Both the position numbers and the translations under genes were made by a program. A stretch of 64,000 bases of DNA from an uncultured Chthonomonadaceae bacterium (GTDB lineage: Bacteria; Armatimonadota; Chthonomonadetes; Chthonomonadales; Chthonomonadaceae), in contig CAWFQB010000008.1 in NCBI GenBank assembly GCA_963817895.1, forward strand, positions 1-64,000. The letters run 5' to 3'. Below the pieces are notes generated by a model that ran no database searches, was not told the DNA's origin, and saw only the letters and a list, made by a program, of their open reading frames with translations. Positions 3,105 to 64,000 of this stretch are shown here, piece after piece (within the stretch, counting starts at the first letter, position 1; every line of letters begins with the position of its first letter).

Positions 3105-4415
3105 ATGAATATCTGTGTGATTGGAACGGGCTATGTGGGTCTGGTGACAGGCTGCGTGTTTGCCGACCTGGGCAACGAAGTGGTGTGCGTGGACAACAAT
3201 CCCGCCAAAGTCGCCATGCTGGAACGGGGCGAAATGCCCATTTACGAGCCGGGGCTGGAAGAGATGGTCAAGCGCAACGTGGATGACAAACGCCTGTTCT
3301 TCACGGGCGATCTGGCTGAAGGCGTGGAACGCTCCGACGTGGTTTTTATCTGCGTGGGTACGCCGCCGATGCCAAACGGCGATCCCGACATGAGCTACGT
3401 GCAGGAAGCCGCCAAAGGCGTTGCCCGCAGCCTGAACCGCTACAAAGTGATCGTCAACAAAAGCACGGTTCCCGTCGGCACGGGCAATATGGTGCGCGAA
3501 ATCATTGAAAACAACCGTCGCCGCAACGTGGATTTCGATGTGGTCAGCAACCCGGAATTCCTGCGCGAAGGCTCGGCCATCAAAGACACGCTGGAACCCG
3601 ACCGCATCGTTATCGGCGCTCCCAATCAGGTGGTGGCGATGAAGATTCTGGAACTCTACGCCCCGCTGGAACGGCCCATGATTATCACGGACGTGGCAAG
3701 CGCGGAGATGATCAAGTACGCCAGCAACGGCTTCCTTGCCACCAAAATCAGTTTCGCCAACTCCATCGCCAACATCTGCGACGCGGTAGGCGCGGACGTG
3801 CTGCAAGTGGTCAAAGGCATGGGCATGGACAGCCGCATTGGCAGCGCGTTTCTCAATCCCGGTCTTGGTTACGGCGGCTCCTGCTTCCCCAAAGACAGCA
3901 GCGCGCTTGTCCGCACGGCGGAAAAAGCGGGCGTGGAGTTCAAACTGCTGCAATCTGTGATTGATGTCAACAAAGATCAGGCTGTTCGGTTCATAGACCG
4001 GTTGCGCGTGGCGATGGGCGGCACATTTGAGGGCAAAACCGTCGGCATTTTAGGACTGGCCTTCAAGCCCAATACCGATGATATGCGCGATGCCAAATCC
4101 GTCGAAATCATCGGCGCATTGCTGGCCGAAGGGGCGGAAGTGCAGGCATACGACCCGATTGCCATTGACAACACCAAGCGCATCTTCCCGCAAATCTGTT
4201 ACGCCAACAACGCCTACGAAGTGGCGACAGACGCAGACGCGCTGGTTATCGTCACCGAATGGAACGAGTTCAAGTTGCTCAACATGGAACGGATCAAGGC
4301 CGCGATGAAGACCCCGCTCCTGTTCGATGGCCGCAATATCTACGACCCGCTCAAACTGCGCCGACTGGGTTTTGAATATCACTGCATCGGGCGCACGACG
4401 GCGGTGTTGAAGTAG
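3105..4415 (+). CDS. ugd: UDP-glucose 6-dehydrogenase
   Basis: GTGYVG Rossmann motif, KSTVPVGT, NPEFLREG, GYGGSCFPKD, GLAFKPNTDDMR. Confidence 0.96.
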   Translation: MNICVIGTGYVGLVTGCVFADLGNEVVCVDNNPAKVAMLERGEMPIYEPGLEEMVKRNVDDKRLFFTGDLAEGVERSDVVFICVGTPPMPNGDPDMSYVQEAAKGVARSLNRYKVIVNKSTVPVGTGNMVREIIENNRRRNVDFDVVSNPEFLREGSAIKDTLEPDRIVIGAPNQVVAMKILELYAPLERPMIITDVASAEMIKYASNGFLATKISFANSIANICDAVGADVLQVVKGMGMDSRIGSAFLNPGLGYGGSCFPKDSSALVRTAEKAGVEFKLLQSVIDVNKDQAVRFIDRLRVAMGGTFEGKTVGILGLAFKPNTDDMRDAKSVEIIGALLAEGAEVQAYDPIAIDNTKRIFPQICYANNAYEVATDADALVIVTEWNEFKLLNMERIKAAMKTPLLFDGRNIYDPLKLRRLGFEYHCIGRTTAVLK

Positions 4416-4550
4416 GTAGATAAGTAGATGGTAGATAGGTAGATAGGTAGGGAAAACCCCTTCCAAGTATCACCTGCTCCCTCTACTACCCATAGCATAA
4501 ATGCAGGCAATAGCTGCTTATCTACCTATCTACCCATCTACCTATCTACC
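4415..4550. repeat. Inverted pair of 8-nt tandem repeats (GTAGATAG)n ... (TATCTACC)n
   Basis: About 4 units at 4415-4450 and 4 complementary units at 4519-4550. Confidence 0.9.
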
Positions 4551-4560
4551 GGAGATTGAC

Positions 4561-5493
4561 ATGTCCTTGCTGGAAAAAATGCGGAAAACCGCGCGGAACG
4601 AAGATTACGACAGGGGAATTCGCCTGTTCGATCAGGGGCAGTATGAGGAAGCGATTGCGGCCTTTGCCCGCGCCCGCGAACAGGGCGGGCGACAGGACCC
4701 GCTTAACGCCAAACTGTCCACGTTCTATACCGGGGAAGCGTATGCCCATCTGGGACATGCGGCTCTGAAACGGGGCGTATGGGCGAGGGCGCAGGAGTGT
4801 TTCGTACGAGCGATTGCCGTGCATCCGCACTACGCCGACCTGTATTATCATCTCGCCGTCGCCCGCAAAGCCCTCGCGGAACGGGAAACCGCGCTGGCCG
4901 CGCTCGGACAGGCGCTGGAAATCAATCCGCATTTCGCCAAAGCGCATTTTCTGGAGGGCGTCCTGCGCTACGAGCAGGGCGAACACGAGCAGGGCATCGC
5001 GTGTCTGCGAAGCGCACTGGATTGTGATCCCGGCTTTTGCACGGAAGCCTTCGCTGCCGGTTTGAATTACCATCAATCTGGGCAGAACCGGGCGGCATTG
5101 CAAGCGTTCGAGCAGGTTTCGCATACCGACGTGGATGATATAATTTTCCACTTCCGGCTCGGCGACGATTACTACAAGCGTGGCCTGTTCACGGATGCGG
5201 TCGAGGAGTACCAGAAGGCGCTGACGCTCAACCCCAATTATGCTGATATACGCAACCATCTGGGCATCGCGTACAGCGCGCAGGGTCTGGCGACGGAAGC
5301 GATTACCGAATTCCAGTACGCGCTGTCCATCAACCCGCGCTACGTGGAAGCTATGCTCAACCTCGCCCTGACCTACGCGGAGCAGGGCCAGAAAACGGAA
5401 GCGCACCGCTTGTTTGCGGAGGTGTTGAAAATAGAAGTGGACAACCCCGTCGCGCAGCAACATTTACGGGCAGGTGTACAACGGGCAGCGTAG
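4561..5493 (+). CDS. Tetratricopeptide repeat protein
   Basis: Multiple TPRs (e.g. YQKALTLNPNYADIRNHLGIAY); GGAG SD before ATG 4561. Confidence 0.9.
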   Translation: MSLLEKMRKTARNEDYDRGIRLFDQGQYEEAIAAFARAREQGGRQDPLNAKLSTFYTGEAYAHLGHAALKRGVWARAQECFVRAIAVHPHYADLYYHLAVARKALAERETALAALGQALEINPHFAKAHFLEGVLRYEQGEHEQGIACLRSALDCDPGFCTEAFAAGLNYHQSGQNRAALQAFEQVSHTDVDDIIFHFRLGDDYYKRGLFTDAVEEYQKALTLNPNYADIRNHLGIAYSAQGLATEAITEFQYALSINPRYVEAMLNLALTYAEQGQKTEAHRLFAEVLKIEVDNPVAQQHLRAGVQRAA

Positions 5494-5520
5494 CGTTTTT
5501 GTCTTGAACCAGGATTTTAC

Positions 5521-5673
5521 ACAACTATTCACCACCAAGACGCCAAGTACACCAAGATAAAACAGGCAGCAAAAGGGACAGAACTGGCGACGTTTTCGTT
5601 TTCTTCTGCAATCTCACAACGTCTTTCGTTGAGTTATCTTGGTGTACTTGGCGTCTTGGTGGTGAATAGTTGT
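5521..5673. repeat. Perfect 40-bp inverted repeat built of ~9-nt CACCAAG-type units, between convergent genes
   Basis: 5521-5560 ACAACTATTCACCACCAAGACGCCAAGTACACCAAGATAA is the reverse complement of 5634-5673. Confidence 0.92.
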
Positions 5674-7019: not shown

Positions 7020-7085
7020 CTTTTTCGTTTATTTCGCGGTTCCCTCTCCTCTTCTCCTCTTCTCCTTTTCTTCTTTTCTTACTCT
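7020..7085. repeat. Composite repeat (AGGAGAAR)n + AACCGCGAAATAAACGAAAA at the moaC 3' end
   Basis: Same composite at 24667-24740 and 63716-63790. Confidence 0.75.
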
Positions 7086-19361: not shown

Positions 19362-19452
19362 TAGGGAGTAGGGAGTAGGTTGTAGGGAGTAGGAAAAACG
19401 ATGTTTAACTCGCGCATTGTCCTATTCCCTACTCCCTACTCCCTACTCCCTA
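19362..19452. repeat. Inverted pair of 7-nt tandem repeats (GGGAGTA)n/(TACTCCC)n
   Basis: 19362-19394 and 19420-19452. Confidence 0.9.
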
Positions 19453-20526: not shown

Positions 20527-20558
20527 TAGCCGCGAATGAACGCGAATAGACGCGAATA
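20527..20558 (+). repeat. Solo 10-nt tandem array TAGC(CGCGAATGAA)~3
   Basis: Same unit as the GxxExxY terminal repeats. Confidence 0.85.
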
Positions 20559-20567
20559 AGATGTCGG

Positions 20568-21846: not shown

Positions 21847-22068
21847 GCTAGAGACATAGAGACACAGAGGAAAAACCGATACGAGGAAAGGAGAGACGAA
21901 CCGCAAAGGGGCAAAGGAACACAAAGAACTACAAAGAGAAAGGAGTGTTAAGAGAAGAGCCAGTCTTACCGTAAACTCTTGTTGTTCTTGTTGAATTCTC
22001 TTTGCGTCCCTTTGCCCCTTTGCGATTCGTTTGTTTCTCTTCTCTTGTTCTTTCTCTGTGTCTCTAGC
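21847..22068. repeat. Nested inverted tandem repeats (outer CACAGAGA-type, inner GCAAAGG-type)
   Basis: GCTAGAGACATAGAG.../...CTCTGTGTCTCTAGC and CGAACCGCAAAGGGGCAAAGG/CCTTTGCCCCTTTGCGATTCG. Confidence 0.8.
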
Positions 22069-22085: not shown

Positions 22086-22877
22086 TTATCCTCTTGCGCC
22101 TTTGGCCGCGTCCGCCACTGCTGCCGCGACTTTGAGGTTGGCGTTCACGGCGTCCCAATCTATCACCTGAAAGAAGGCGTCAATGTATTTGGCGCGGGCG
22201 GTCTGGAAGTCCAGCCAGTAGGCGTGTTCATACACATCGAGGCCAAGAATGGGCGTGGCGTGCCAGACGGGGAAAGCGTTTTGGGCGTCGCCGATGTAGT
22301 TGAACAGGCTGCCGTCCGTGTGGTCGTGCGCGAGCCACACCCAACCGCGCGCGGCAATGCCCGTCGCTTTTAGGTCGGCTTTCCAGTTGGCGTAGCTGCC
22401 AAACGCGCTTTTAATCAGGTCGCCTGCCATGCCGGTCGGTTCGCCGCCGTTTCCGCCAAGATGCCCGAAGTACAGTTCGTGGTTCTTCACGCCGCCGAGC
22501 GCGAAACTATATTCTACTTTCAGTTCGCGAATGTCGCTGTAGGTGGCATTGGCTTTAGTCGGATCGGGAACGCCCAATCCGGCCAGTTTGGTTCGGATTT
22601 CGTTGACCTTGTTGACGTAGCCCACATACAGTTTGTAATGCTCATCATGGGTTTTGCGGCTGATGCCGAATTTTTCCGTGTTATACACCTTCTGCGGCAG
22701 GGGTTTGGCGGTTATCATGGCGGGCGTGCTGCCTTTGGCGGGCGCGTCCTGCGCGTCTGCCGGGTACAAAACGCCCGATGCGCCTAATGCGGTCAGACTT
22801 GCCGCGCCCAGTGTCAGGAAGCGGCGGCGGTCAACGCCATTGGTTTCCTGTGTGTCTTGCTCGTTTTCAAGGCTCAT
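22086..22877 (-). CDS. Fe/Mn superoxide dismutase with Tat signal
   Basis: DRRRFL twin-arginine; metal ligands EHYKLY, NHELYF, DVYEHAYW. Confidence 0.9.
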   Translation of the reverse strand: MSLENEQDTQETNGVDRRRFLTLGAASLTALGASGVLYPADAQDAPAKGSTPAMITAKPLPQKVYNTEKFGISRKTHDEHYKLYVGYVNKVNEIRTKLAGLGVPDPTKANATYSDIRELKVEYSFALGGVKNHELYFGHLGGNGGEPTGMAGDLIKSAFGSYANWKADLKATGIAARGWVWLAHDHTDGSLFNYIGDAQNAFPVWHATPILGLDVYEHAYWLDFQTARAKYIDAFFQVIDWDAVNANLKVAAAVADAAKGARG

Positions 22878-22912
22878 GTTTTTGATCTCCCTTAAAGAGC
22901 GTCTCTCGATTG

Positions 22913-23092
22913 GCCGGGTACAAAGAACGTACCCGTCTGTGTGGCGTTCCGCCAGGCGTCCTTCGGACGCAAATGCAGCATCCCTGTAGAGCACAGGCGC
23001 TTACAGTGGACGCTTTTGAACATAGCGCAAAGCCACGTCCAAAGGACGTTAACGCGAAGGCTACTCAGACGGGTACGTTCTTTGTACCCGGC
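22913..23092. repeat. REP-doublet/MITE-like element with 27-bp perfect inverted repeats
   Basis: GCCGGGTACAAAGAACGTACCCGTCTG at 22913-22939 and its reverse complement at 23066-23092; inner hairpins GCGTCCTTCGGACGC/ACGTCCAAAGGACGT. Confidence 0.88.
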
Positions 23093-24444: not shown

Positions 24445-24458
24445 AAGTCAAATAAGGA

Positions 24459-24740
24459 ACCGCGAAACACGCGAAACACGCGAAAAAGAACGCTGCAAAA
24501 ATGTCCGTTTGAAAAACGAGTGTCCCATTATAGCACAAGGTTCGCTTAACCGGCATATAAAATGCCGGTTAAGCAGACCTGCGGCCAACCGTCCTGCGGA
24601 CGAGCAAACGCTTCTGTTTATAAGCCGTAATGCCCTGTTACCCGAATGTCCTCTGCTTTTTGTTCCTTTTTCGTTTATTTCGCATATTTCGCGGTTTATT
24701 TCTCCTCTTCTCCTTTTCTCCTTTTCTCCTTTTCTTCCTC
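24459..24740. repeat. Inverted pair of 9-nt repeats (ACGCGAAAC) with an internal 13-bp palindrome and an adjacent (TTTTCTCC)n array
   Basis: AACCGCGAAACACGCGAAACACGCGAAA at 24459; complementary TTTCGCATATTTCGCGGTT near 24678-24696; GCTTAACCGGCAT/ATGCCGGTTAAGC at 24544-24574. Confidence 0.82.
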
Positions 24741-26441
24741 TCCGATTCGTTTCCACACCCGAACTCCGCTGCCGTTCGGGTCGGTCCAGACGGGCTGCCA
24801 TTTGTCGCCATACTCGCGCAGGTAGTTGTCAAAGATTTGGCGGCTTGGTGGGACGCCCCATTGCCACGAGTCCTGAAGCAGATAGCGGACATGATGGGGC
24901 GCGATATACGCTTTTTCCTGCGCCCGCGCGCTGGTGGTGGGTTCCAGTTGCGCGGTAACGTTACCTGCATACAGGTGCAGCAGGTATTGCGGCTTGCCCA
25001 TGACAATTTGGCGCGGGTTGGAGTTTTGGCGCAGCCATGCGCAGGCAGCGTAAAACCCGGCCTCGTCGCGATTTCTGCCGAAGTCGTAACCGGCCAGTGT
25101 CGGACGATGCTCCTGCCGTATCACGCGCCAATGCACATTGGCAAAGTAGATGAGCAGCGCGGCGATACCAATAGTTTGTACGGCGGTTACAACTGTCGCA
25201 TTGGAACGCTTTTGCAGCCATTCGGACGCCTGCTCCACGCCGAGCATCAGGAACAGAATCATAAACGGGATCAGCGGAACCAGAAACCGCGCGTTTTGCC
25301 AGGGCCACATCGCCGCCACAAACCAGAACAGTATGCTGAATCCGACGGACAACTTCATGCCGCGCTTCCACGCTTCACGGATACCCACGAACATCAGCAG
25401 CGTAAGTGGCACGGCTATTATATAGAAAAGCGCCAGCCAGACGGTGCGCGGCGGAGCCATCATGTACAGCGAAGTCCGGGGTATCAGGCCGATATAGGTG
25501 GGCAGGCCGAACTTCATGCGCGACAAAATTCCGCGCGCATTGAGCGGTATGCGTCCCGCGTCCGCCTGCATCGGGTTTTTCAGCGTGAATTGGTCTACGT
25601 AACTGGAATAGCGTATTTCCGGGTGCGCCTTCACGATATGCGAGTTGCGCTTCAGCCACCCGCCTACCACAAGCAGCGTCACCAGCAATGCCCCCATCCC
25701 CCACTTCCACCCGAACCGCTTCCAAAACCAAACAATTTGCGCCAGCAGAAGGGCGATGCCGGAGGTTCGCATGAGGAAGGCCGTTGCTGCGCAGAGGAGA
25801 GAAAAGGAGATTTTAGATGGGGGTTGATGGTTGATAGTTGAAAGAGACTCCTCTCCTTCTTGTACCTCCTTTTCTCCTTTTCTCCTTTTCTCCTTTTCTC
25901 CTTTTCTTTCTACTAAAACAACCGACGCCAGACACAAAAACAGCAACGGCATTTCCGACATGACTTCGTTGGCGTAGGAGATCAGGGAGGGACAGGTAGC
26001 GGCGAAAAGCAGACCGGCGGCAATATAGCGGTTGGGCAGTCGGGCGCGTTTCAGGAGAGCATACAGCATGGGCAGTGTGCCGAGCAGCAGGGCCAGCAAT
26101 GTCAGTTTGACGGGAAGAATCACGCCCATTGCGTCCCGCCCCGTTATCCGCATCCAAAAAGCAATGATGGCGGGGAAACCGGGCGGGTACAGCGTGTCGA
26201 GCGGCTGCCGAACGTCATTGAGTAGCCGTAAATCGCCGGTACGCGCCAGCGACTCGCCCAAAACCATATAACGCCCGGAGTCGTTGGCGACATTGAGATA
26301 CGGCGTCCATTGCAGCAGCCACAGTATGACAATAATTGCGCCACACAAAGCAAACAAAAATAGCCGCGAATGAACGCGAATGAACGCGAATATAGATGCA
26401 AAGGATTTAGAAATGAAAGGCAACTCGTTTCCATTCGACAT
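24696..26441 (-). CDS. Polytopic membrane glycosyltransferase (GT-C/ArnT/PMT-like); start uncertain
   Basis: NDSGRY...YPPGFP, VMSEMP, many TM segments, RFLVPLIP; contains in-frame repeat-derived peptides. Confidence 0.75.
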   Translation of the reverse strand: MSNGNELPFISKSFASIFAFIRVHSRLFLFALCGAIIVILWLLQWTPYLNVANDSGRYMVLGESLARTGDLRLLNDVRQPLDTLYPPGFPAIIAFWMRITGRDAMGVILPVKLTLLALLLGTLPMLYALLKRARLPNRYIAAGLLFAATCPSLISYANEVMSEMPLLFLCLASVVLVERKGEKEKRRKGEKEVQEGEESLSTINHQPPSKISFSLLCAATAFLMRTSGIALLLAQIVWFWKRFGWKWGMGALLVTLLVVGGWLKRNSHIVKAHPEIRYSSYVDQFTLKNPMQADAGRIPLNARGILSRMKFGLPTYIGLIPRTSLYMMAPPRTVWLALFYIIAVPLTLLMFVGIREAWKRGMKLSVGFSILFWFVAAMWPWQNARFLVPLIPFMILFLMLGVEQASEWLQKRSNATVVTAVQTIGIAALLIYFANVHWRVIRQEHRPTLAGYDFGRNRDEAGFYAACAWLRQNSNPRQIVMGKPQYLLHLYAGNVTAQLEPTTSARAQEKAYIAPHHVRYLLQDSWQWGVPPSRQIFDNYLREYGDKWQPVWTDPNGSGVRVWKRIGEEEKEKRRKGEEEK

Positions 26442-26865
26442 GGGGATTTTGAAAGTTGACCAGCATAGCAAGAGTGCGGTTGGTGGCGCGCAGGTAATTC
26501 AAGCACTGCGCAATGTGTATGTTGGTTAGAGACGAAACACACTTCAACTCCACAATCAGTTTACCTTCAACCAGCACATCCGCGAAATACTCGCCAATCA
26601 TTTCGCCTTTGTACTCCACTTGAATGGGAACTTGCGCCTCCGCTTTCAGGCCTCGCGTCTGCAATTCCTTCACCAGAGCGCGTTCATAGAGTTTTTCCAG
26701 AAACCCCGCGCCAAGCACGTTAGAAACTTCAAACACTGCTCCAACAGTTTCTCGAAACAGCCTATCCAACTCCTGCCGCTCTTTCTGTCGGGCGCTACCA
26801 TATCTGCTTCCATTGGTTTCCTCCTCATCCCATTCGCGTTCATTCGCGTTCATTCGCGGCTATTT
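26358..26865. mobile_element. GxxExxY gene unit bounded by perfect 34-bp terminal inverted repeats made of a 10-nt tandem unit
   Basis: AAATAGCCGCGAATGAACGCGAATGAACGCGAAT at 26358-26391 is the reverse complement of 26832-26865. Confidence 0.75.
26407..26853 (-). CDS. GxxExxY protein (PD-(D/E)XK nuclease superfamily, PDDEXK_3)
   Basis: LGAGFLEKLYERAL, ADVLVEGKLIVELK, QCLNYL, LVNF. Confidence 0.93.
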   Translation of the reverse strand: MNANEREWDEEETNGSRYGSARQKERQELDRLFRETVGAVFEVSNVLGAGFLEKLYERALVKELQTRGLKAEAQVPIQVEYKGEMIGEYFADVLVEGKLIVELKCVSSLTNIHIAQCLNYLRATNRTLAMLVNFQNPHVEWKRVAFHF

Positions 26866-26887: not shown

Positions 26888-28303
26888 CTACCAGTCCATG
26901 ACCGAGCCGTCGGCGCGACGGGTGTTGGGCAGGTAGGCGCGTTTGTACGGATAGCGTTTTGCCGCTTCTTCGTTGACATCCACGCCCAACCCGGGCGCGT
27001 CCGACACGTTGAGATAGCCGTTGTGGAAAGTGGGCGCGCCGGGTAGGACTTCGTGAACCGCGTCGGAAAACAGGACCATCTCCTGAACGCCGAAGTTGGG
27101 AATAGCAAGGTCTACGTGAACATTGGCGGCGTGCATGGCAGGGCCGATGTCGCCCGGTCCGTGCCACGCGGTTTGAATATAGTAACATTCGGCAATGGCG
27201 GCGATCTTTTTGGCTTCCGTAATGCCGCCGATGTGTCCCAAATCGCAGCGAATAAAATCTATGAGTTGTTCGGTCAGCAGGGGCAGGCAGTCCCATTTGG
27301 TATGAAACAGTTCGCCCATTGCCAGCGGGGTTGTCGTGTGCTGCCGAATCAGCCGGAAGCTCTCTTTATGTTCGGGGCGCAGGCAGTCTTCCAGAAAGAA
27401 CAGGTGGTACGGTTCCAGTTCCCGCGCCAGCCGAGCCGCCTGTATGGGCGTCAATCGCTCATGCACATCATGGAACAGTTCAATCTCCTCCCCTAACTTA
27501 TCCCGCAGATGCGCGAACAGACGGGGAATCGTCCGCAAGTACGGCCCCGGCTCCCAAGTCTCTATCTGTGGCATCGGCCCACCATCACCGGAGGTGATAA
27601 AGGATGAGGGATGTGTCCTTCCCTGCGGGTGGACGCCCGGGACGAGGGATAAATTGGATTGTCTCTCCTCTTCTACTTTTCTCCTTTTCTCCTTTTCTTC
27701 CCCTTCCGGTGACGGGGAAGCCGACTCGCCCTGCGTTTCTGCCGGGTCGCGGGGTTCGGGGAGGGATTGAGAAGGTGGGGCGCTCCAGGTGGCGGACGCG
27801 GCTTCTCTGGCTCCGCCTACGCCATACGTTCCCACTGTGCCGGGAATGGCGACCTGCGCGCGAACCACTTTGAAGCCCCGTTCCATGCACTGCCGGACGC
27901 TGTCTTCCACTTCCGCGAAATCGCGCCCGCCCGCATGGGTGTAGGCCAATGCGCCTGTTCGCGTTCTGCCGCCGAGAAGGGAGTAGACGGGAAGACCGGC
28001 GCGTTTGCCCTTGATGTCCCACAGGGCAATATCAATTCCGGCAAGCGCGGTCATCAGAACGGGGCCGCCGCGCCAGTAGGTTCCCCGGAACAGCATTTGC
28101 CAGATGTCTTCAATCTGGTCGGGGTCGCGCCCGATGAGCAGGGGCGCGATATGTTCGGTCAGGGCAGACGCGACGGCAAGTTCGCGCCCGTTGAGCGTGG
28201 CGTCCCCCACTCCATACAGGCCGGGTTCATCCGTCAGGATTTTCACGACGACATAGTTGCGGGTAGGACAGGTGACAATCACGCGCACATCAGTTATTTT
28301 CAT
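26888..28303 (-). CDS. D-mannonate dehydratase (ManD/RspA subgroup, enolase superfamily) with an in-frame loop insertion
   Basis: VTCPTRNYV, GVGDATLNGRELAV, YWRGGPV, HDVHERLTP, FFLED, HGPGD, NFGVQE, RADGSVMDW. Confidence 0.88.
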   Translation of the reverse strand: MKITDVRVIVTCPTRNYVVVKILTDEPGLYGVGDATLNGRELAVASALTEHIAPLLIGRDPDQIEDIWQMLFRGTYWRGGPVLMTALAGIDIALWDIKGKRAGLPVYSLLGGRTRTGALAYTHAGGRDFAEVEDSVRQCMERGFKVVRAQVAIPGTVGTYGVGGAREAASATWSAPPSQSLPEPRDPAETQGESASPSPEGEEKEKRRKVEEERQSNLSLVPGVHPQGRTHPSSFITSGDGGPMPQIETWEPGPYLRTIPRLFAHLRDKLGEEIELFHDVHERLTPIQAARLARELEPYHLFFLEDCLRPEHKESFRLIRQHTTTPLAMGELFHTKWDCLPLLTEQLIDFIRCDLGHIGGITEAKKIAAIAECYYIQTAWHGPGDIGPAMHAANVHVDLAIPNFGVQEMVLFSDAVHEVLPGAPTFHNGYLNVSDAPGLGVDVNEEAAKRYPYKRAYLPNTRRADGSVMDW

Positions 28304-36943: not shown

Positions 36944-37077
36944 GCTTGCGCTTATGTTTAGCGCCGCTATGATAAGGAACTCTTGAAACTGTCGGCAAGT
37001 AGTGTCAACTAACAGAATAAGTCTGATTCCGCCTTTCCTATGGAGAGGCTTTTTGCGTAGTGGAAGAGTACATCATC

Positions 37078-37110
37078 ATTCGCGTGTATTCGCGTTCATT
37101 CGCGGCTAAA
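37078..37110 (-). repeat. Solo 10-nt tandem array (GxxExxY TIR unit)
   Basis: ATTCGCGTGTATTCGCGTTCATTCGCGGCTAAA. Confidence 0.85.
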
Positions 37111-39136: not shown

Positions 39137-39205
39137 CGGCGTGTCAGAAGTTCATGTTGGTAGGGGCGTTGCTTGCTGCGCCCAACATGAACTTCTGACA
39201 CGCCG
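39137..39205. repeat. 24-bp inverted repeat enclosing a GTAG-type REP
   Basis: CGGCGTGTCAGAAGTTCATGTTGG / CCAACATGAACTTCTGACACGCCG around GTAGGGGCGTTGCTTGCTGCGCCC. Confidence 0.85.
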
Positions 39206-49572: not shown

Positions 49573-50072
49573 GGCACTACTCCCACCCATAAGAGGATCG
49601 AATATAATCCGGTGTTTGCTTCTCACATTATACCATGCCCGGTAGTAGATACCTCACGCAGTCATCCCATTCAAAGCCGGATAAGCGGGAGTTGAAACAG
49701 GTAACGACTATCAGGCTCAAACGCGGATACGGATTCAAAAGCGTCTCTCGTTGAGAATCAAGGATATTCGCGGTAAGAAAATCAACCGCATCCTTCTGGC
49801 TTCTAAATATAGCAGCGAACTAGAAAAACCTGTGGTATAATGCGTTTACATAGCGAAAATCACGGCGTTTTTACCGCCCTGTTGCCGCCATACAGGAATC
49901 TCGCGCCCCGATGCCGAATCCTTTCCCTAGAGGAACTCAGCGCAGCCTTCGTTCGCGCTCTAGCGCTCGCAATTTTTCCTCCCCCCGTATCGTCAAACTT
50001 GTCCGGCCGGATCGCGCCTGCCCCCGCTCGCCCGTTCGCGCCGCGCCAATGCGAAGACTGTCGCCAAAGAGA

Positions 50073-50196
50073 AGATACGAGATACGAGATACGAGATACG
50101 AGAACTCCAAAATACCGGCTTTTAGTAGTTCCTATTACTGCCGCTTCATTCAACACTTTGGGACTTCTCGTATCTCGTATCTCGTATCTCGTATCT
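50073..50196. repeat. Inverted pair of 7-nt tandem repeats (AGATACG)4
   Basis: 32-bp perfect inverted repeat, 50073-50104 / 50165-50196. Confidence 0.92.
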
Positions 50197-50220
50197 CTCC
50201 TATCGCGCAGGGTGGAACCC

Positions 50221-54890: not shown

Positions 54891-56501
54891 ATGGAAACTT
54901 ACCCATCCGTTCGCTCCCTGTTTTGCTGTCAAGCCGTTTTCAGGAGGTTTCGCGCCATCAACGCTCCACGCTTATCCCGCTCTGCCTGTCATCGCCGCGC
55001 TTTCCGCCCCAAAGTCGGTTTCTTTTCTTTGCTGCCGCTTTCCCGCCTGCTGTTGCCGACGTGTGGCCTGCTGCTGCCGTTGTCTCTGGCGCAGGGCCAG
55101 CATACGTCCTATGCCGCCGCGACGCGACACAAGCAGGTTAATGCAGAAAAGGAGAAAAGGAGAAAAGGAGAAGAGGAGAGAAATGCGGACGCTACGCCGG
55201 ATGAAGAGGCGGATAGTGGAACCGATACGGGACAAACTACTCAGGATAATGCCCCCGATACGCTTCCGCGCCCAAACGACAATCTCAACGCGCAACGCTC
55301 AACGCTCAACGCTCCTCTGATTAAGTCCGCAAGCGCTATTTTGATTGACGCGGTATCAGGGCAGGTGTTGTATGAGAAGAACGCCGATCAGCCGCGTCCT
55401 ATGGCAAGCACGACGAAAATTATGACCGCGCTGCTGCTGTGCGAGCGCGTTCCGAACGAAGACACGCTGATTACCGCCAGCAAGGTTGCCGCGAGTACGC
55501 GGGAGAGTTCGCTGCATTTGAAGGCGGGGGAGAAGGTTTCGGCGCATGACCTGCTCCGCGCCATTCTGATGCGTTCCGCCAATGACGCCTGCGTCGCCGC
55601 TGCGGAAAATGTTGGCGGTAGCGTGTCCGGCTTTGCCGACCTGATGAATGCCCGCGCGCAACAGTTAGGCTGTACGCATACCCACTTTGTCAATCCGCAC
55701 GGCCTGCAAAACAAAGAACACTACACCAGCGCGCGTGACCTTGCTATGATTGCGCGGCAGGCCATACAGGAACCGCGCATCAGCGAGGTGACGCAACTGC
55801 GCAAATGCCGCATCAAGCGCTCGATGGACAAGTTCGACGTGACCATGCGCAACCACAGCCACAAGTTTCTGGAAAAGTATCCGGGCGCGGACGGCATTAA
55901 AACGGGCTGGACGGTTCCCGCCGGACACTGCTTTGTCGGCTCGGCCACCCACAACGGCTGGAAACTGATTGCCGTCGTGCTGAAAAGCCCCGATTTTGTA
56001 CAGGAAACGGGCGCGCTACTGAATTACGGGTTCGGGAGGTTTGAGCCTCGCTCCCTCGCCAAAGCCGGGGATGTTCAGTCCCCCTGCCCCGTGACGAATG
56101 GCGTTGCGCCCAATGTGTCCACGTCGGCGAAACAGGCGTTACAGGTCGTTCTGCCCAAAAACACATCACTGCCCACGCCCGTGATTCAAACCCATGTTAC
56201 CCTGCGCCCGCAAACCGCCCCGGTTAAGACCGGCGCGGAAGTGGGAACACTGGAAGCGCAAATTGACGGCAAGACCGTTTGCGCTACGCCCCTTGTCGCC
56301 ACAGCAAGCGTTCCCGTCGCCGTCGCGCCCGCTTTGCTGACCAAAAGCAAGGGTTCCGGTAAATCGTTATTATTTCTCACTTCCATTTTTCTTGCTGTCG
56401 TGGTATCCTTAAAGTATGGAAAAGGAATTACCACGTCTACAAAAAACGCTCGCCGCCGCTGGCGTCGCCTCAAGAAGAGCATGCGAGGCTCTTATCGCTG
56501 A
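54891..56501 (+). CDS. D-alanyl-D-alanine carboxypeptidase (peptidase S11); start uncertain
   Basis: MASTTKIMT, SAND, NPHGL, IKTGWT. Confidence 0.92.
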   Translation: METYPSVRSLFCCQAVFRRFRAINAPRLSRSACHRRAFRPKVGFFSLLPLSRLLLPTCGLLLPLSLAQGQHTSYAAATRHKQVNAEKEKRRKGEEERNADATPDEEADSGTDTGQTTQDNAPDTLPRPNDNLNAQRSTLNAPLIKSASAILIDAVSGQVLYEKNADQPRPMASTTKIMTALLLCERVPNEDTLITASKVAASTRESSLHLKAGEKVSAHDLLRAILMRSANDACVAAAENVGGSVSGFADLMNARAQQLGCTHTHFVNPHGLQNKEHYTSARDLAMIARQAIQEPRISEVTQLRKCRIKRSMDKFDVTMRNHSHKFLEKYPGADGIKTGWTVPAGHCFVGSATHNGWKLIAVVLKSPDFVQETGALLNYGFGRFEPRSLAKAGDVQSPCPVTNGVAPNVSTSAKQALQVVLPKNTSLPTPVIQTHVTLRPQTAPVKTGAEVGTLEAQIDGKTVCATPLVATASVPVAVAPALLTKSKGSGKSLLFLTSIFLAVVVSLKYGKGITTSTKNARRRWRRLKKSMRGSYR

Positions 56502-57997
56502 AGGCCGCGTCACGGTCAACGGCAAAGTGATACGCGAAATGGGCGCGAAACCCGACCCGGCTAAGGACGACATCCGCGTGGATGGGCAGCCTATCGGCGC
56601 TCAGGAAAAGCGTAAACCGCTTTATATCATGCTCAACAAGCCGGCAGGCTATACCAGCACGGTCAGCGATCCCCACGCGGAACGCGCCGTGCTGGACTTG
56701 CTGCTTCAGGTGGAAGAGCGCATCTATCCCGTCGGGCGTCTGGATGTGGACAGCGAGGGCATGCTCCTGCTGACCAATGACGGCGAGTTCGCTAACCGTC
56801 TCACCCACCCCCGCTACCATGTCCCCAAATTGTATCAGGTTCGGGCGCGCGGCTTTGTGGGCCGCGAGGCCGCCACGCGACTGGCTGAAGGCGTCGAGTT
56901 GGAGGACGGCATAACCGCGCCCGCCGAAGTGCGCTACATCGAGTACGATACGGCCACGCAGTCTACCATTATTGAAATCACGCTTTACGAGGGTCGTAAC
57001 CGGCAGGTGCGCCGCATGTTCGATCAGATCGGGCATCCGGTTCGGCAACTGACGCGAATTGGTTTCGGAACCCTGCGCCTGCAAAACCTGAATCCCGGCA
57101 CATGGCGCAAACTCCGTCCCGAAGAGGTGGACGCGCTGCTTGCCCTCGCGCAGCCTACCGCCACGCCGCCCAAATCCGCCCGCAAGCTGAAAGCCACCGG
57201 CCCCTACCGCCCACGCAATGCGGGGAAGATAGAAGAGGTGAAGAGGAGAAGAGGAGAAGAGGAGACAGGGGCCGGGAAAACTGTTGGCGCGCCGTCTATG
57301 CCGCCTGTTGCGAAAGCGGCTCCTAATGTGAGGCATGAGGAAGACCGAACGCAAAAGTCGGAAGACCGAACACCGAACACCGAACACCGAACACCGAACG
57401 TTCGGAAAACTGCGCCGGGTACGCAAACGGCGTCCGATGCGAAGTATGCGCCCATTTCCCGGCCTGTTTTTGCGCCTGATGCCGCGCCCCGCGTAAAACC
57501 GGCGTTTGGCGGTAAGCCTGCCCGTCCCGCAGGGAAACCTTTTGTCGGCAGACCTGCGCCGGTAGACGGGAACCGAAACGGCCCCGGAAACAGGCCCGCG
57601 CCCGGAAACGCCCCTGCTGGCCGAAACGCTTCTGCGCGAAACGCGCCTGCGGTCCGTCCCGCGTATGGGGCTGCAAAAGCGCCTGTCCCCACCCCGGTGT
57701 TTGAAGTGGGCAACCCGCGCTTTGCCAATCCGCTCAATAACCCCTTGCTCAAAGCCCGTCCCGCCAAATTCATGCCCTGCCCGCCCCGCGTCCGAAACAG
57801 GAAACAGTGAAGTAGGAAAACGGGGTAAGGGAAAAGGGAAAAACGGAAAGTCAATCGAAAATCGAAAATCGAAAATCGAAAATCCCAACGGCGCGGTGGA
57901 TTTCTCCTCCAACAGCACGGCGGGGCGCAAAGCCGGACTGCCGTTTCAGCCCCGGCCCAAGCAGGGGCATCGCGCGTTCGGGAGGGCCAAGCCATAA
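56416..57997 (+). CDS. rluB: 23S rRNA pseudouridine synthase RluB with a long low-complexity tail (stop at 57810 as sequenced, or 57997 if CCC at 57775 carries an extra base)
   Basis: S4 domain RLQKTLA.AGVASRR, LNKPAG, VGRLDVDSEG, EGRNRQVRRM. Confidence 0.88.
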
Positions 57998-58977: not shown

Positions 58978-60095
58978 CGGCTGATGTGACCACTGCCCCC
59001 GCCAAGCGCGTCACCGCAACCCTGTCAGGCGACCATCTGGCCGACCTGTGGCAGCGCAGGCGCGTGTTGTGGACGCTCCTGGCCCTGCTGCTGTCCATGA
59101 TTGTGATCAACATCGGCGCGGCTCCCAATGAAGTGGCCCTGCAAACGCCCGCGCCCGTTGTGATCGGCGTTATCGCGCAGCACATCCCGTTCATCGGCAA
59201 GCATATCACTTTGCCGCCCACTGTCCGTGATGTAGATCGCGGCATCGCGTGGAATATCCGCCTGCCCCGCGCTTTATGCGGCGTAGGCGTGGGGATTCTG
59301 CTGGCATTAGCAGGCGTGGCGTTCCAATCCCTGCTGATGAACCCGCTTGCCGACCCTTATACAACGGGCGTGGCGTCCGGTTCCGCGTTGGGAACCATCG
59401 CCCTGACCTTAGCGGGATATGCGGCGTACTGGGGCGGCTACGCGCTTGTGGGCGCGTCGTTCGCGTCGGGGTTGCTGGCGGTCAGCATCGTGTACCTGCT
59501 GGCGCGAATAAACGGGCGCGTGTCGGCGCAAACCTTTCTGCTGTCGGGAACCATTGTCGGTTCGTTCTTTTTCGCGCTGATTCCCCTGCTGCTGTCGCGC
59601 GCCGCCAATGGTGGCGGGGATGCCAAAGCCGTGATTATGTCCAGCCTGTTCGGCAGTTTGAACACGGTAGGCTGGCCGCAGGCGGGAATTCTCGCGCCCT
59701 TTTGCGTGTTGGGAGTTTTTCTGATGTGGCGCGGCTCGTCCGAACTGGACATGATGACGCTGGGCGAGGAGAGCGCAGCGCATCTCGGCGTGGATACCGA
59801 ATCCTTCAAGCGGCGCATCATAGTGCTTGGTTCCCTGCTCACGGCGGCGGCAGTCTCGGTTGCGGGCATCATCGCGTTTGTCGGTTTTCTGGTTCCGCAT
59901 CTCGCCCGCCGCCTTGTCGGTCCCAACCATCGCGATCTGGTATTAGCGTCCGCCCTGCTCGGCGGCTTCACGCTCACGCTGACGGATTACCTGTCCCGCG
60001 TGTGGCTGGACGACCTGCAAATCGGCGTGGTCACGTCCCTGCTCGGCGTCCCGTTCTTCTGCGCCCTGTTACGCCGCCGAATGTTAAAGGGCTAA
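58974..60095 (+). CDS. FecCD/BtuC-family ABC permease
   Basis: IRLPR, NPLADPY..GVASG, LGEESAAHLGVD, GIIAFVG..VPH. Confidence 0.92.
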   Translation: MTADVTTAPAKRVTATLSGDHLADLWQRRRVLWTLLALLLSMIVINIGAAPNEVALQTPAPVVIGVIAQHIPFIGKHITLPPTVRDVDRGIAWNIRLPRALCGVGVGILLALAGVAFQSLLMNPLADPYTTGVASGSALGTIALTLAGYAAYWGGYALVGASFASGLLAVSIVYLLARINGRVSAQTFLLSGTIVGSFFFALIPLLLSRAANGGGDAKAVIMSSLFGSLNTVGWPQAGILAPFCVLGVFLMWRGSSELDMMTLGEESAAHLGVDTESFKRRIIVLGSLLTAAAVSVAGIIAFVGFLVPHLARRLVGPNHRDLVLASALLGGFTLTLTDYLSRVWLDDLQIGVVTSLLGVPFFCALLRRRMLKG

Positions 60096-60104
60096 ATGCA
60101 AATC

Positions 60105-60245
60105 TTCACCACAGAGACACAGAGACACAGAGGTTTCACAGGGGGAGAGACGAGGCAAGGAAATGCTTATACGTAGGTTCTCCCTCTCTCTTATTTCTGT
60201 TCTTTTCTCTGTGACCCCTCTGTGTCTCTGTGTCTCTGTGGTGAA
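60105..60245. repeat. Inverted pair of 8-nt tandem repeats TTCAC(CACAGAGA)3
   Basis: 29-bp perfect inverted repeat, 60105-60133 / 60217-60245. Confidence 0.92.
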
Positions 60246-60268
60246 AAATTACTTTCGGGAGTCAGCGC

Positions 60269-60793: not shown

Positions 60794-60907
60794 TAGGGGC
60801 GCTGCTTGCTGCGCCCTGCATTGATTGCTGCGCCTCGCTTTGATTGTTGCGCCTTGTTTTGAAAATCTCAGCGATATTGAGGAGGGTTCAGCAAGCAGAA
60901 CCCCTAC
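60793..60907. repeat. GTAG-type REP doublet
   Basis: GTAGGGGCGCTGCTTGCTGCGCCC at 60793-60816 and inverted GTAGGGGTTCTGCTTGCTGAACCC at 60884-60907. Confidence 0.85.
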
Positions 60908-60934: not shown

Positions 60935-61501
60935 ATGTCCCGAATACCTTCCCGACCGGGCCGTAAACGCCCGCCCCAACCGAAAACAAAGCGTTCCGCG
61001 ATGGCGTTGCCAAAAGCGGGTTCCACTTCTCTTGACCCGGAAATGGAAAAGGCCGTCAATCGCCTGTTTCTGCGCCTGATTCGCCGCGTCGCGCTGACGT
61101 GCGCGGTGATGCTGGTAACGGGTTGGCTGGTAACGTGGGCGACGAAATCTTCCCATGCCGCCAGCGCGCCCGTAATTTACTACGCCATTCTGCTCGGCGT
61201 CGCGATTGTGTATCAGCGGGGCGTGGAACAGGTGTTTACGCAGGTGCGGCAGTTGGGCATTGATAAACTGAAGCAGCGGCGATATGCGGATGCCGTGTTC
61301 GCGCTGGACAACTTTCACCGATTGGGCAACATGAACCGTGACCGAACCGGCGAAGCGCACTACTATCTGATGCAGGCATATCAGGGCATGGGGCAGACAG
61401 AGAAAGCCACGGAAATACGCGACTGGCTGCAAAAGCATCGCGTTAAATCGGAGTGGGCAACGCGCGCCATACAGGAAAACCCTGCCGTTTCCACTATCTA
61501 A
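60935..61501 (+). CDS. Hypothetical membrane protein with TPR-like C-terminus
   Basis: Two TM segments; EAHYYLMQAYQGMGQTEKA. Confidence 0.65.
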   Translation: MSRIPSRPGRKRPPQPKTKRSAMALPKAGSTSLDPEMEKAVNRLFLRLIRRVALTCAVMLVTGWLVTWATKSSHAASAPVIYYAILLGVAIVYQRGVEQVFTQVRQLGIDKLKQRRYADAVFALDNFHRLGNMNRDRTGEAHYYLMQAYQGMGQTEKATEIRDWLQKHRVKSEWATRAIQENPAVSTI

Positions 61502-61570
61502 AAGTAGTGACGTCCCTGTTGTCAACAGGGGCGTCTTGCTGCCTGCCATTTCTGCCAATATTCTATCGTT

Positions 61571-62608: not shown

Positions 62609-62669
62609 TCTCTTCCTCCTGATTCAGTTACGTATAATGCAGCAAATGTGCAGGCGAACTAACCCGTAG

Positions 62670-63506
62670 TTACCAGCCGGGATAGATGTCTTTGCGGCAG
62701 GAGAACCAGGGGCGTTTGAGCGTGTCGTAGATAACGTGTTTAACATGGCCGTCGCACCACAGGCAGGTCGCGCCGTTGCGGTGCAGCAGATGAAAATGGT
62801 CGCGGTAAGGGCCATCGGGCGGCGTGGTCAGCCAGTTGGGGGATTGAAGAAAGTTACATTCGGGGGCGGGGTTTTCGTGTTCCCACGCCATGAGGGTACT
62901 GGACGGCTGCTGTATCTCCGAGTCGAGCGCGCCGACGAGAATAGTCTGCCCGGTCGCGGGGTCGGTAATCTGTAAACGGAAGGCGGGGCCGAACTCATTT
63001 GCGGACGCTGCGGGATTGACAGCGTAGTAGTCGGAATCGAGATACATGTTGAACGCATTCAGCCCCAGCGCCATTTGCCACGAGTTGGGCGCGTCCGGGC
63101 ATTTCTTAACCTGATCGTTTTTGATGTACGGATCGAGCGAACCGGGATGAATAGTGTGAGTGGCAGGTTGCGTCATATCGCCGCCAATGGGCGATGCGCT
63201 GACCGCGTTGTTGTTGTCGAACCCGATCCAGGGCTGAATGTTGGAGCCGTTCGGCCCCGGCCCCCGCGTATACGCGCCCACCCAGAACTCGTCGTTGTCC
63301 TGACAATACATCCGCGCCGCAAGCCCGATTTGCTTCATGTTACTCGCGCACGACGCCTGCCGCGCCGTTTCCCGCGCCTGCGCGAACACAGGAAACAAAA
63401 TCGCCGCCAGAATGGAGATAATAGCGATAACGACAAGCAGTTCAATCAGGGTGAAAGCGTGGTTTTGGGTGGTTGGTGATTGGTGGTTGGTGGTTGGTGT
63501 GATCAC
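62670..63506 (-). CDS. Prepilin-type N-terminal cleavage/methylation protein (DUF1559, H-X9-DG); start uncertain
   Basis: [45 protein letters not shown]. Confidence 0.9.
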
Positions 63507-63711
63507 GCGATTGTGAGAGGCGGACTGAAGGCGTGAAATCAGATGCTGTTGAAAACGAAATGAGCCAAGCATGAGCATTTTTCCTTGTGCGGGAGGCAAC
63601 GCAAGGGTCAACCGGGAATAGTCAACAAGCAACAGGCAAAAATTTGAGGACACAACATGTTGTGTCCCTACTTTCTTTACCGCTTCTCAATATACCTGCC
63701 TTTATTTGTTT

Positions 63712-64000
63712 TTATTTTCGTTTATTTCGCGTGTTTCGCGGTTTATCTCTCCTCTTCTCCTCTTCTCCTCTTCTCCTTTTCTCCTCTTCTGCCTTTTCCG
63801 CGCGGCGCAGGCGGTTTACGTATTCATGCGCCTGTCGCGTGGTTTCAGGGACGCGCGTATTACCCAGGCAGCGCAGGACAAGCGCAATCGCGCTTTCCAG
63901 ATCAACGCGGTGGCCGACGGAGATGAAGACCGGCGAGGCTTTGCGCCGGGTACGCAGCGCGGCTCCCACGACTTCATTCTTATCCAGCAGGGGCATCCAG
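63712..64000 (-). CDS. nfi: Endonuclease V, 3' part (runs off the window)
   Basis: VGAALRTR...PVFISVGHRVDL...RVPETTRQAH; C-terminus derived from tandem repeats. Confidence 0.88.
   Translation of the reverse strand, partial: WMPLLDKNEVVGAALRTRRKASPVFISVGHRVDLESAIALVLRCLGNTRVPETTRQAHEYVNRLRRAEKAEEEKRRRGEEEKRRDKPRNTRNKRK

Follow-up and report, generated by a model that had tools for sequence, protein, structure and literature searches.

What generates pairs of short tandem arrays that face each other as inverted repeats, keep one architecture while the repeated word changes from site to site, and in a few cases enclose a gene? The question is raised by a 64,000-nt stretch of DNA (contig CAWFQB010000008.1, positions 1 to 64,000 of the forward strand; hereafter the window) from an uncultured Chthonomonadaceae bacterium, in which eight such pairs lie between protein genes and one of them brackets the gene of a GxxExxY-family protein. 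Our answer, to which we give a probability of about one half, is that the pairs are gene-less relatives of cassettes of the ribosomal RNA (rRNA) intervening-sequence (IVS) type, which bracket a gene either for a GxxExxY nuclease or for an S23p/Avd-like protein with a four-helix bundle.

The source genome (G000; 7.48 Mb in 14 contigs, GC 0.57, with the window on contig C8) is an 81%-complete assembly, 19% being missing by marker count, and its seryl-tRNA synthetase has its nearest named relative, at 74% identity, in a metagenome-assembled genome (MAG) of the Chthonomonadaceae. Arrays were called over the whole genome with Tandem Repeats Finder at a period of 6-12 and at least 2.5 copies; the gene-context figures come from a crude purpose-made gene caller. 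The comparison drew on two sister species of the same genus, G001 (97% complete, 3 contigs) and G002; on 12 genomes from other genera of the family, in samples of 6-100 kb each from assemblies many of which are fragmented; and, for the cargo genes, on 251 genomes of the phylum.

Inverted array pairs in the window and across the genome

All eight pairs named in the preliminary description of the window are present, at or within a few bases of where it had placed them (see the table); its range ran on to 63,790, where there is a solo array and not a pair. An inverted-repeat finder called all eight, including those with imperfect or nested units, and Tandem Repeats Finder called both arms of five. 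Folded as RNA against 200 shuffles each, five of the pairs form long hairpins (z -8.0 to -13.2), and 0 of 200 shuffles fold equally well. Arms of 23-40 nt across the window pairs agree in size with the stem (~20-30 bp) and loop of IVS-type elements.

The pairs sit closely against genes. The TAG stop of a UDP-glucose dehydrogenase gene is the first triplet of the left arm at 4413, and the right end of that pair is 4 nt ahead of the GGAG-N7-ATG of a TPR gene. The 5521 pair, with an outer TTCACC motif, lies between the convergent TPR and serS genes; the 19362 pair lies between the stop of a SIS-domain gene and the start of a DUF3866 gene, both on the minus strand; the nested hairpins at 21849 are enclosed by a GC-rich outer stem; and the 50073 pair stands just upstream of a gene for a 1086-aa protein and is built from AGATACG, the commonest pair word of the genome. 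The 60095 pair, again with an outer TTCACC motif, starts at the TAA stop of a FecCD gene and ends 14 nt before a YcxB-like gene. The 24458 pair is an older, degenerate one, and its spacer combines a segment conserved in all three species with a hairpin insertion private to the source genome.

These eight belong to a large family. Among the 3310 arrays found genome-wide, heptamers predominate (1430 with 2.7 copies or more, median 4.3), and octamers come second (648). Neighbouring arrays of the same word within 1500 nt are inverted in 544 cases and direct in 72, and where the gap is below 100 nt the ratio is 448 to 4, so that the genome-wide repeat search that had been proposed finds inverted pairs far beyond chance. 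Within 700 nt there are 509 inverted same-word pairs, 300 of them heptameric, made from 91 canonical words; about 13 words account for most of the pairs (AGATACG 64, GGGAGTA 48, AAGGATG 33). The left arm is purine-rich in 436 of the 509, pyrimidine-rich in 53 and neutral in 20, and since a purine-left inverted repeat is identical on both strands, this polarity is a true asymmetry. The purine-rich left arm noted in the window is thus a rule of the genome, weakly expressed at 5521, where 22 of 40 bases of the arm are purines in a count by eye.

Arrays measure about 30 nt irrespective of period (medians of 30, 32 and 28 nt for 7-mers, 8-mers and 10-mers), and they are phase-locked: those of AGATACG start at phase 0 or 6 in 207 of 220 cases and end at phase 1 or 2 in 180 of 220, and other word families behave likewise. 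This argues that an arm is a defined module and not the outcome of local slippage of random extent. A constant architecture with a changing word is therefore well founded (91 words in 509 pairs, a length of ~30 nt and word swaps at orthologous sites), whereas a purely local version of the generative mechanism suggested with it is unlikely, given that ~13 words dominate and the arms are phase-locked. Spacers, most often 40-60 nt long and of GC 0.44, are unrelated to each other, as had been seen in the window: pairwise comparison shows similarity in 97 of 66,430 cases, and a second match in the genome exists for 37 of 365. Their folding exceeds that of shuffles only slightly (198 of 305). Growth in onion fashion, with spacers as the decayed remains of older arms, was considered and rejected, as the purine fractions of the two halves of 305 spacers are 0.511 and 0.489 (143 vs 148).

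The placement at gene junctions likewise extends to the genome: of the 470 pairs whose gap does not exceed 150 nt, 419 lie outside called genes (co-directional 331, convergent 63, divergent 25) and 51 inside. Divergent junctions are under-represented: they hold 25 of these 419 pairs, whereas 801 of 4240 background gaps (80 nt or longer) are divergent. Where the flanking genes are co-directional (332 contexts), the median distance from the stop to the 5′ arm is 2 nt (interquartile range -3 to 12), and that from the end of the 3′ arm to the called start is 19 nt. Solo arrays that are purine-rich on the sense strand lie a median of 12 nt past the stop, and pyrimidine-rich ones closer to the next start.

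Cassettes, cargo genes and turnover at shared sites

Judged by sequence and by model, the product of gene 26407-26853 is a member of the GxxExxY/PDDEXK_3 family and a predicted nuclease. In an alignment of 24 sequences G50, Y56, D92, E102 and K104 are invariant and E53 nearly so, and the modelled structure (predicted local distance difference test, pLDDT, 90.6) has a PD-(D/E)XK fold, closest to Cas4 SSO0001, lambda-type exonucleases and Hjc; a sequence search of the protein against solved structures gave no match. The protein is without close kin, the best identity being 54% among the sampled loci and 36-45% to its own paralogues. Its arms are perfectly complementary over 34 nt, consisting of the CGCGAATGAA units and 7 flanking nt.

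The genome holds six cargo genes in all, four of PF13366 and two of PF05635 (four-helix-bundle, S23p), and all six are bracketed by inverted arrays, each with a word of its own; every one of these words recurs in 6-16 gene-less pairs. The arms of the four-helix-bundle protein gene at C1:1459284-1459589 carry 4-5 units of GGTAGATG. Two window pairs can be matched directly to cassettes elsewhere: the word family of the 4413 pair also brackets the genome's four-helix-bundle gene (C1:1459220-1459648), and the word of the 5521 pair, together with its outer motif, also brackets a GxxExxY gene (C3:444680-445240). The suspected association with GxxExxY and four-helix-bundle cargo thus holds for six of six genes in this genome and for most of those sampled across the phylum.

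The arms differ with the cargo. Within the order, all 13 PF05635 loci have inverted 7-8-mer arrays, including those of array-poor genomes, and among 20 PF13366 loci 12 have clear arms with a 9-10-nt period, 3 partial ones and 5 none or a locus that is cut. Across the phylum an array adjoins the PF05635 gene at all 26 complete loci and forms a strict inverted pair at 18 of them (period 7 at 13, 8 at four and 9 at one; median 4.3 copies). For PF13366, pairs occur at 12 of 29 loci (period 9 at six, 8 at three, 10 at two and 6 at one), and 18 of the 29 qualify if exact inverted repeats of 14 nt or more are counted as well; the arms often stand behind an outer TTCACC or GAACC motif. In the phylum GxxExxY genes therefore have words of 8-10 nt with about three per arm, and four-helix-bundle genes words of 7-8 nt with about 4.3 per arm; from this cargo-specific period and copy number we conclude that arm design depends on the cargo family. 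In some array-poor genomes (L141 = G005:C1:955000-956250, L144, L149) arms of four-helix-bundle cassettes reach 26-28 heptamer copies, against ~4.4 in the source genome, and at G024:C3:264478-266382 a GxxExxY and a four-helix-bundle gene lie 1.2 kb apart.

By this yardstick the window pairs 4413, 19362 and 50073 follow the four-helix-bundle design, and 5521, 21849, 24458, 26358 and 60095 the GxxExxY design. The 3-4 units per arm first described do not hold for heptamer arms, which have ~4.3-4.6. Nor can all cargo-less pairs be relatives of the GxxExxY unit, as had been supposed: this fits the words of 8-10 nt, whereas those of 7-8 nt match four-helix-bundle cassettes. That they are emptied cassettes finds no support, since no gene remnants were found outside the four and two intact genes (tblastn with the window GxxExxY protein finds only the four intact genes, and family searches the 4 + 2) and since the sister species hold a solo array and not an empty pair at the site of the window cassette.

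Related proteins tend to have related words. Four-helix-bundle proteins of at least 60% identity have words within one mismatch in 10 of 24 comparisons, against 4 of 321 below 60%; the matches include cross-family pairs (e.g. L224/L147 and L225/L145), and, counted by hand, 3 of 8 cross-genus pairs differ by no more than one base. The words of GxxExxY proteins are within two mismatches in 13 of 16 comparisons, against 37 of 178. In both sets related genomes are not independent of each other. Such covariation, read from sequence, could reflect binding of the word by the protein, or could come about through inheritance or transfer of whole cassettes alone. A model of the GxxExxY complex scored 0.49, the best of three controls scoring 0.02, and its runs agreed in at least 80% of contacts with a partner pLDDT of at least 86; among solved structures, 20 of 30 one-chain pairs and 1 of 23 single chains came up to the mark of 0.49, counts that apply only roughly here (own alignment, three copies). 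The model lends support to a head-to-tail self-association of the predicted nuclease but is no proof of it.

The sister species show how the pairs come and go. The genus is rich in arrays, with 16 (G001) and 33 (G002) 7/8-mer arrays and 3 and 6 pairs per 100 kb, respectively; the 12 genomes outside the genus have 0 to 8.6 arrays per 100 kb, against 16-33 within it. A comparison was possible at seven of the eight window sites, synteny being lost at 5521 (see the table). Pairs are not fixed among relatives, where they may be gained, missing or re-worded, and G001 is without a pair at three of the seven sites. Sites are nevertheless shared far more often than independent insertion of ~500 pairs among ~6000 gaps predicts, while the word often differs, and a shared site carries a word that also abounds in other parts of its genome: in G002, TAGTCAG occurs in a four-helix-bundle cassette, in the 23S insert and at the 4413 orthologue, and AGGCATT at two window orthologues. 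Judging from the alignment of the three species, the window cassette was gained beside a solo array of its word that was already there. That a protein without close kin came to stand beside a cognate resident array suggests word-directed integration.

Hairpins of this kind also occur within genes. In each of the two 23S rRNA genes a repeat-armed hairpin lies ~1.3 kb from the 5′ end, and an insert of ~90 to 135 nt occupies the identical place in the genus with arms of TAGGGAT in the source genome, TAGTCAG in G002 and GGGAGTA in G001; the array-poor G005 and G013 have a short helix and no insert there. This location is consistent with helix 45, for which fragments of 1.2 + 1.7 kb are reported, and helix 45 is the helix we infer. 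The eight window pairs lie between protein genes and hence not at a 23S helix tip. An inverted AGATATT pair is found at G000:C4:874972-875046, 2.7 kb upstream of one 23S gene and possibly inside a 16S rRNA gene; no counterpart is listed near the other rRNA operon. In the window, a solo array at 27664-27698 is inserted in frame between the two domains of an enolase-superfamily protein, and the G001 orthologue is without this insert. The presence of hairpins wherever a hairpin or a floppy loop can be tolerated points to insertions rather than to site-specific signals.

Explanations and known relatives

The closest parallel is with the IVS of 23S rRNA (helix 45 of Coxiella; Leptospira, Salmonella and others), which are described as having terminal inverted repeats, a stem of ~28 bp and a loop that optionally holds a PF05635 open reading frame (ORF), and as being sporadic in distribution and gained by insertion (PMC4990558). 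The genus has its own 23S hairpin, and both PF05635 genes of the source genome lie in such hairpins. Unlike IVS, the window copies are intergenic, their stems consist of tandem words, hundreds of pairs are gene-less and there is a second cargo, GxxExxY, with arms of its own. We propose that the elements are the intergenic counterpart of 23S IVS, as insertions that would persist where a hairpin is harmless. In Coxiella burnetii the loop of the IVS holds the S23p ORF, and RNase III is reported to cut the 28-bp stem near its middle (PMC4990558); by analogy, stems of 23-40 bp would be cut by RNase III as RNA and would thus be tolerable in operons as well as in rRNA.

How the arms spread is a more tentative matter. 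The words may be addresses that the cassette proteins recognise: five Avd-like four-helix bundles, joined as a ring, would sit on four to five heptamers, and a head-to-tail GxxExxY oligomer on about three nonamers. Together with host replication or repair, these proteins would copy the arms, and sometimes themselves, in trans into sites that already hold a hairpin loop or a cognate array (behind stops, at rRNA helix tips, in protein linkers), and would so form a class of mobile element that has no transposase. Such copying would account for both shared sites and genome-specific bursts of single words. We regard this mechanism as a possibility well short of even odds; if true, address reading would explain bacterial heptamer arrays (STRR, Xanthomonas GGGAATC) and rRNA IVS together.

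Several results weigh against the cassette interpretation and its mechanism. Covariation of protein and word is explicable by cassettes that are inherited or transferred as units without binding, and RNase III cutting is taken from the Coxiella analogy. The three commonest words, AGATACG, GGGAGTA and AAGGATG, have no cognate cargo gene in the 81%-complete assembly; in G001 no PF05635 gene reaches E 1e-8, and heptamer pairs are still present at 3 per 100 kb, which argues against a four-helix-bundle gene as a requirement; and array-poor genomes such as G005 hold a cassette without genome-wide spread. Unique spacers imply that whole elements are not copied in the manner of a miniature inverted-repeat transposable element (MITE), and target-site duplications are at chance level (none in 304 of 471 pairs, at least 3 nt in only 7). 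The three-copy model of the GxxExxY protein gives an open head-to-tail chain in which copies 1 and 2 each keep one free face, and we have dropped the notion that three words call for three subunits. Complementarity between partner arms is little higher than between same-word non-partners (21.6 vs 19.3 for AGATACG), with an excess in five of eight families and none in three; a strict mirror-image co-variation of variant units between partner arms was accordingly set aside as weak.

The strongest competitor, although we hold it to be unlikely, is that the pairs are intercistronic RNA hairpins selected by the host for processing, as 3′ stabilisers or as couplers opened by the terminating ribosome, grown by slippage and later entered by the cargo. 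At 4413 and 19362 both arms change word together while the stem is kept in three species, a classic mark of selection for structure; the 5′ arm adjoins the stop, the ribosome-binding site follows closely on the 3′ arm, divergent junctions are avoided and the folds are strong. Stability or coupling has been proposed for hairpins of the short tandemly repeated repetitive (STRR) sequences of cyanobacteria (PMC2670836), and most Xanthomonas arrays are reported to be transcribed (PMC4692102). A role in mRNA is not, however, to be expected of hairpins in a 23S helix or in frame in a protein gene; the rest of the family manages with few arrays or none, as does G001 at three sites; slippage does not predict phase-locked modules of few words at dozens of unrelated sites; and partner arms match little better than non-partners do. 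A neutral by-product of replication, in which slippage favours 7-nt units and intrastrand template switching inverts the copy, with the cargo as a bystander, we rate as rather improbable. Heptamers are the commonest long simple sequence repeats in many bacteria, and slippage over the polymerase footprint has been proposed for them (Mrazek 2007, as cited in PMC4679880 and PMC4692102). The perfect inverted copy of the left cassette arm, including 7 flanking bases, is what template switching gives, and the heptamer pairs of G001 and the top words that have no gene here agree with it. What such a process leaves unexplained is the narrow length and fixed phase of the arms, the use of one word at many sites with different dominant words in sister species, the polarity of 436 to 53, the association with six of six cargo genes and its cargo-specific period, the covariation of protein and word, and the restriction to one genus within the family.

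Two more conventional explanations seem to us very improbable. A small transposon, either a REP doublet forming a hairpin (REPIN; REP, repetitive extragenic palindromic) with a Y1 transposase of the REP-associated tyrosine transposase (RAYT) type or a MITE with an insertion-sequence transposase, is suggested by inverted doublets of conserved 23-35-nt hairpin modules, which are REPIN-like (PMC3116915), and by three Y1_Tnp genes in the genome. None of the three has an array within 600 nt, though, and Y1_Tnp is found in 23 of 31 genomes whatever their array content, including the array-poor G005 and G013; there are no target-site duplications, spacers are unique and ~90 words would demand many transposases. 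The unlikeness to REP and MITE families noted in the preliminary description is thereby upheld. Bidirectional intrinsic transcription terminators would explain the position after stops, the enrichment at convergent and co-directional junctions and, by the symmetry of A-tract and U-tract, a polarity of 5′ purines and 3′ pyrimidines. Against terminators, TTTT occurs within 10 nt past the right end in 27 of 471 pairs (5.7%), the figure for random 10-mers from intergenic DNA being 3.8%; intrinsic terminators look different from stems of 23-40 bp that enclose loops as large as 80 nt; many pairs end shortly before the next start in tight co-directional junctions (the median of 19 nt given above); and hairpins stand also in rRNA and coding sequence.

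Returning to cassettes of the IVS type, the comparison can be widened to other repeats. The GGGAATC arrays of Xanthomonas campestris and X. axonopodis and those of Nostoc are likewise heptamers of mostly four units, 89-93% intergenic; GGGAATC arrays have their G-rich strand directly past a stop codon in the sense direction, or the complementary strand shortly before the following ORF; they are scarce between divergent ORFs, form 70-75 convergent inverted pairs and vary in length and sequence between sister species at conserved sites, according to PMC4692102. Each of those genomes has one word and not ~90, and the G-quadruplex reading given to GGGAATC is not transferable, as most words here are without a G-tract (among the most common, AGATACG, AAGGATG, AACAACCT and CACAGAGA have no GGG). 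A cassette protein of G002 matches PDB 2GSC, which is XCC0516 (E 8.9e-19, 5 chains), and the start of XCC0516 is overlapped by array no. 15 of GGGAATC in the supplementary table of Rehm et al. 2015 (PMC4692102). The text of that paper has no occurrence of 23S, intervening sequences or helix bundles and does not make the cassette link. Xanthomonas S23p is described as a homopentamer (PMC4990558).

Cyanobacterial STRR hairpins lie between genes, e.g. between hupS and hupL and upstream of hoxW; they too consist of tandem 7-nt units in several word families, are intergenic and hairpin-capable, and have been credited with stability, coupling and termination (PMC2670836). The host here is an armatimonadote and not a filamentous cyanobacterium, the group to which the heptamer words STRR1-3 belong, and the likeness is one of description. 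The resemblance to STRR had been called only superficial; with heptamers dominant, with the Xanthomonas arrays of PMC4692102 matching ours in size, position and pairing, and with STRR hairpins described between genes (PMC2670836), we consider it close. REPIN-RAYT systems (Bertels and Rainey 2011, PMC3116915) share inverted doublets, hairpins, intergenic dispersal and variation between relatives, and differ from the pairs in that these have no linked Y1 transposase, arms of tandem words, many word families per genome and a nuclease or four-helix-bundle cargo.

The four-helix-bundle Avd protein of diversity-generating retroelements is homologous to the PF05635 cargo. Avd is a pentamer that binds nucleic acid and reverse transcriptase. 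PMC10053308 likens PF05635 to Avd and notes a homology between PDB 4DWL and 2GSC. No reverse transcriptase, template repeat or variable repeat was seen beside the cassettes. Genes of the RVT_1 family number one or two in each of three array-rich genomes (G000:C6:132948-133580, G001 and G002) and are absent from two array-poor ones, which, with five related genomes being too few for a conclusion, is a lead only towards a reverse transcriptase as generator. PF13366 is listed as 'unknown, multiple transfers' in PMC3424549. A literature search in a collection with few subscription journals gave no paper on repeats around PF05635 or PF13366 genes or one that makes this link.

The shared design and words, the cargo-specific arms and the related words of related proteins tie together, in one genome and one phylum, three oddities that have stood apart: heptamer arrays (STRR since 1990, Xanthomonas GGGAATC), 23S IVS, and the S23p/Avd-like and GxxExxY proteins. 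Proteins of 'function unknown' become open to direct bench tests. The arrays bear on the turnover of intergenic regions and matter for annotation, as they inflate ORFs, break assemblies and sit within rRNA and protein genes. In fragmented assemblies four-helix-bundle genes (L214, L218, L234, L237 and others) often lie 100-300 nt from a contig end; this fits repeat arms that break short-read assemblies, and counts of such genes and arrays in MAGs are likely to be too low.

Features of the window and minor observations

Array pairs, cargo gene and solo arrays of the window, with the state of the orthologous sites in two sister species
Feature	Position (arms)	Strand	Details	G002	G001
Hairpin pair, word GTAGATAG, 8-mer	4413..4550 (4413-4450/4519-4550)		4.9/4.0 copies; 68-nt spacer; fold z -7.98	TAGTCAG pair; different word	ACAGGGA pair; different word
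Hairpin pair, three imperfect CACCAAGNN units per arm	5521..5673 (5521-5560/5634-5673)		arms 40 nt, 100% complementary; 73-nt spacer; fold z -12.98		
Solo AAAGGAGA array	7045..7079	-	4.4 copies; directly after stop of small gene upstream of serS	no array	no array
Hairpin pair, word GGGAGTA, 7-mer	19362..19452 (19362-19393/19421-19452)		4.6/4.6 copies; 27-nt spacer; fold z -8.41	GGCATTA pair; different word	GGAGAAA/CCTTTTT pair; different word
Solo CGCGAATAAA array	20531..20559		2.9 copies; between two minus-strand genes; word group of the cassette arms		
Nested hairpins, outer TAGAGACA/CACAGAG-type, inner CGCAAAGG-type	21849..22066 (outer 21857-21876/22047-22066; inner 21896-21927/21999-22030)			outer arms kept, interior different	no pair, only ~47 nt
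Pair with CGCGAAAC-type 9-mer arms	24458..24696 (24458-24488/24666-24696)		84% complementary; 177-nt spacer	pair; word family as in source genome	pair; word family as in source genome
Solo TTTCTCCT array	24699..24735		4.6 copies; adjoins right arm of 24458-24696 pair	absent	absent
Solo CTCCTTTT array	25866..25907		5.2 copies; Tandem Repeats Finder		
Cargo-bearing cassette, word CGCGAATGAA, 10-mer	26358..26865 (26365-26391/26831-26858)		2.7/2.8 copies around GxxExxY gene	one solo array of the cassette's word, no gene	one solo array of the cassette's word, no gene
GxxExxY protein gene, 148 aa	26407..26853	-	PF13366 E 9.8e-40, 136 bits (cut-off 22); TIGR04256 E 1.9e-39, 134.6 bits (cut-off 35)		
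Solo AAAGGAGA array	27664..27698	-	4.4 copies; in-frame GEEKEKRRKVEEERQ-type insert in enolase-superfamily gene 26888-28303		
Solo CATTCGCGTG array	37077..37104		2.8 copies; CGCGAAT word group		
Hairpin pair, word AGATACG, 7-mer	50073..50197 (50073-50103/50166-50197)		4.4/4.6 copies; 62-nt spacer; fold z -13.22	AGGCATT pair	none
Two neighbouring solo arrays, unlike words	55145..55314		AGAAAAGG x4.4 (55145-55179); CTCAACG x4.4 (55284-55314)		
Four arrays	57231..57884	+	AGAAGAGG x4.4; GAACACC x5.6; GGAAAAG x3.9; AATCGAA x4.6	other words	none
Hairpin pair, word CACAGAGA, 8-mer	60095..60255 (60110-60132/60218-60240)		2.9/2.9 copies; fold z -10.76	arms as in source, extra nested AGAGGAGA arrays	none
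Solo TCTCCTCT array	63748..63790		5.4 copies; Tandem Repeats Finder		

Arrays around serS are not conserved, being absent from G002 and G001. The four arrays between 57231 and 57884 lie inside an open frame (56416-57810) and just past its end. Scans of the window for Rfam families and for tRNA genes gave no match, and this includes the stretch 49826-50064 upstream of the gene for the 1086-aa protein, where a non-coding sequence (TTCCTCCCCCC ... GCGCCTGCCCCCGCTCGCCCG) is conserved in the three species of the genus while the neighbouring hairpin is not; it could be a leader or a regulatory RNA.

Within the 24458 spacer, the segment conserved in the source genome, G002 and G001 is CCCATTATAGCACAAGG (24515-24535), which may be a promoter -10 region bracketed by the arms. 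The source genome alone has there a hairpin with 19-nt arms (24538-24556/24562-24580) followed by a GTCCTGCGGAC palindrome (24538-24602 in all), and a similar motif, CGTCCTGCGGACG, is found upstream of serS in G002; hairpins with these two motifs may be a second, REP-like family of repeats.

Inverted repeats without tandem words also occur. One, at 22913-23092, has arms of 37 nt that are 92% complementary and 106 nt apart, at the junction of genes 22086-22994 and 23144-23995; another, at 39137-39205, is a perfect 24-nt inverted repeat with a 21-nt loop. At 60806-60862 a 19-nt unit, TTGCTGCGCCTTGCTTTGA, is repeated 3.0 times, with a flanking 25-nt inverted repeat at 60793-60817/60883-60907.

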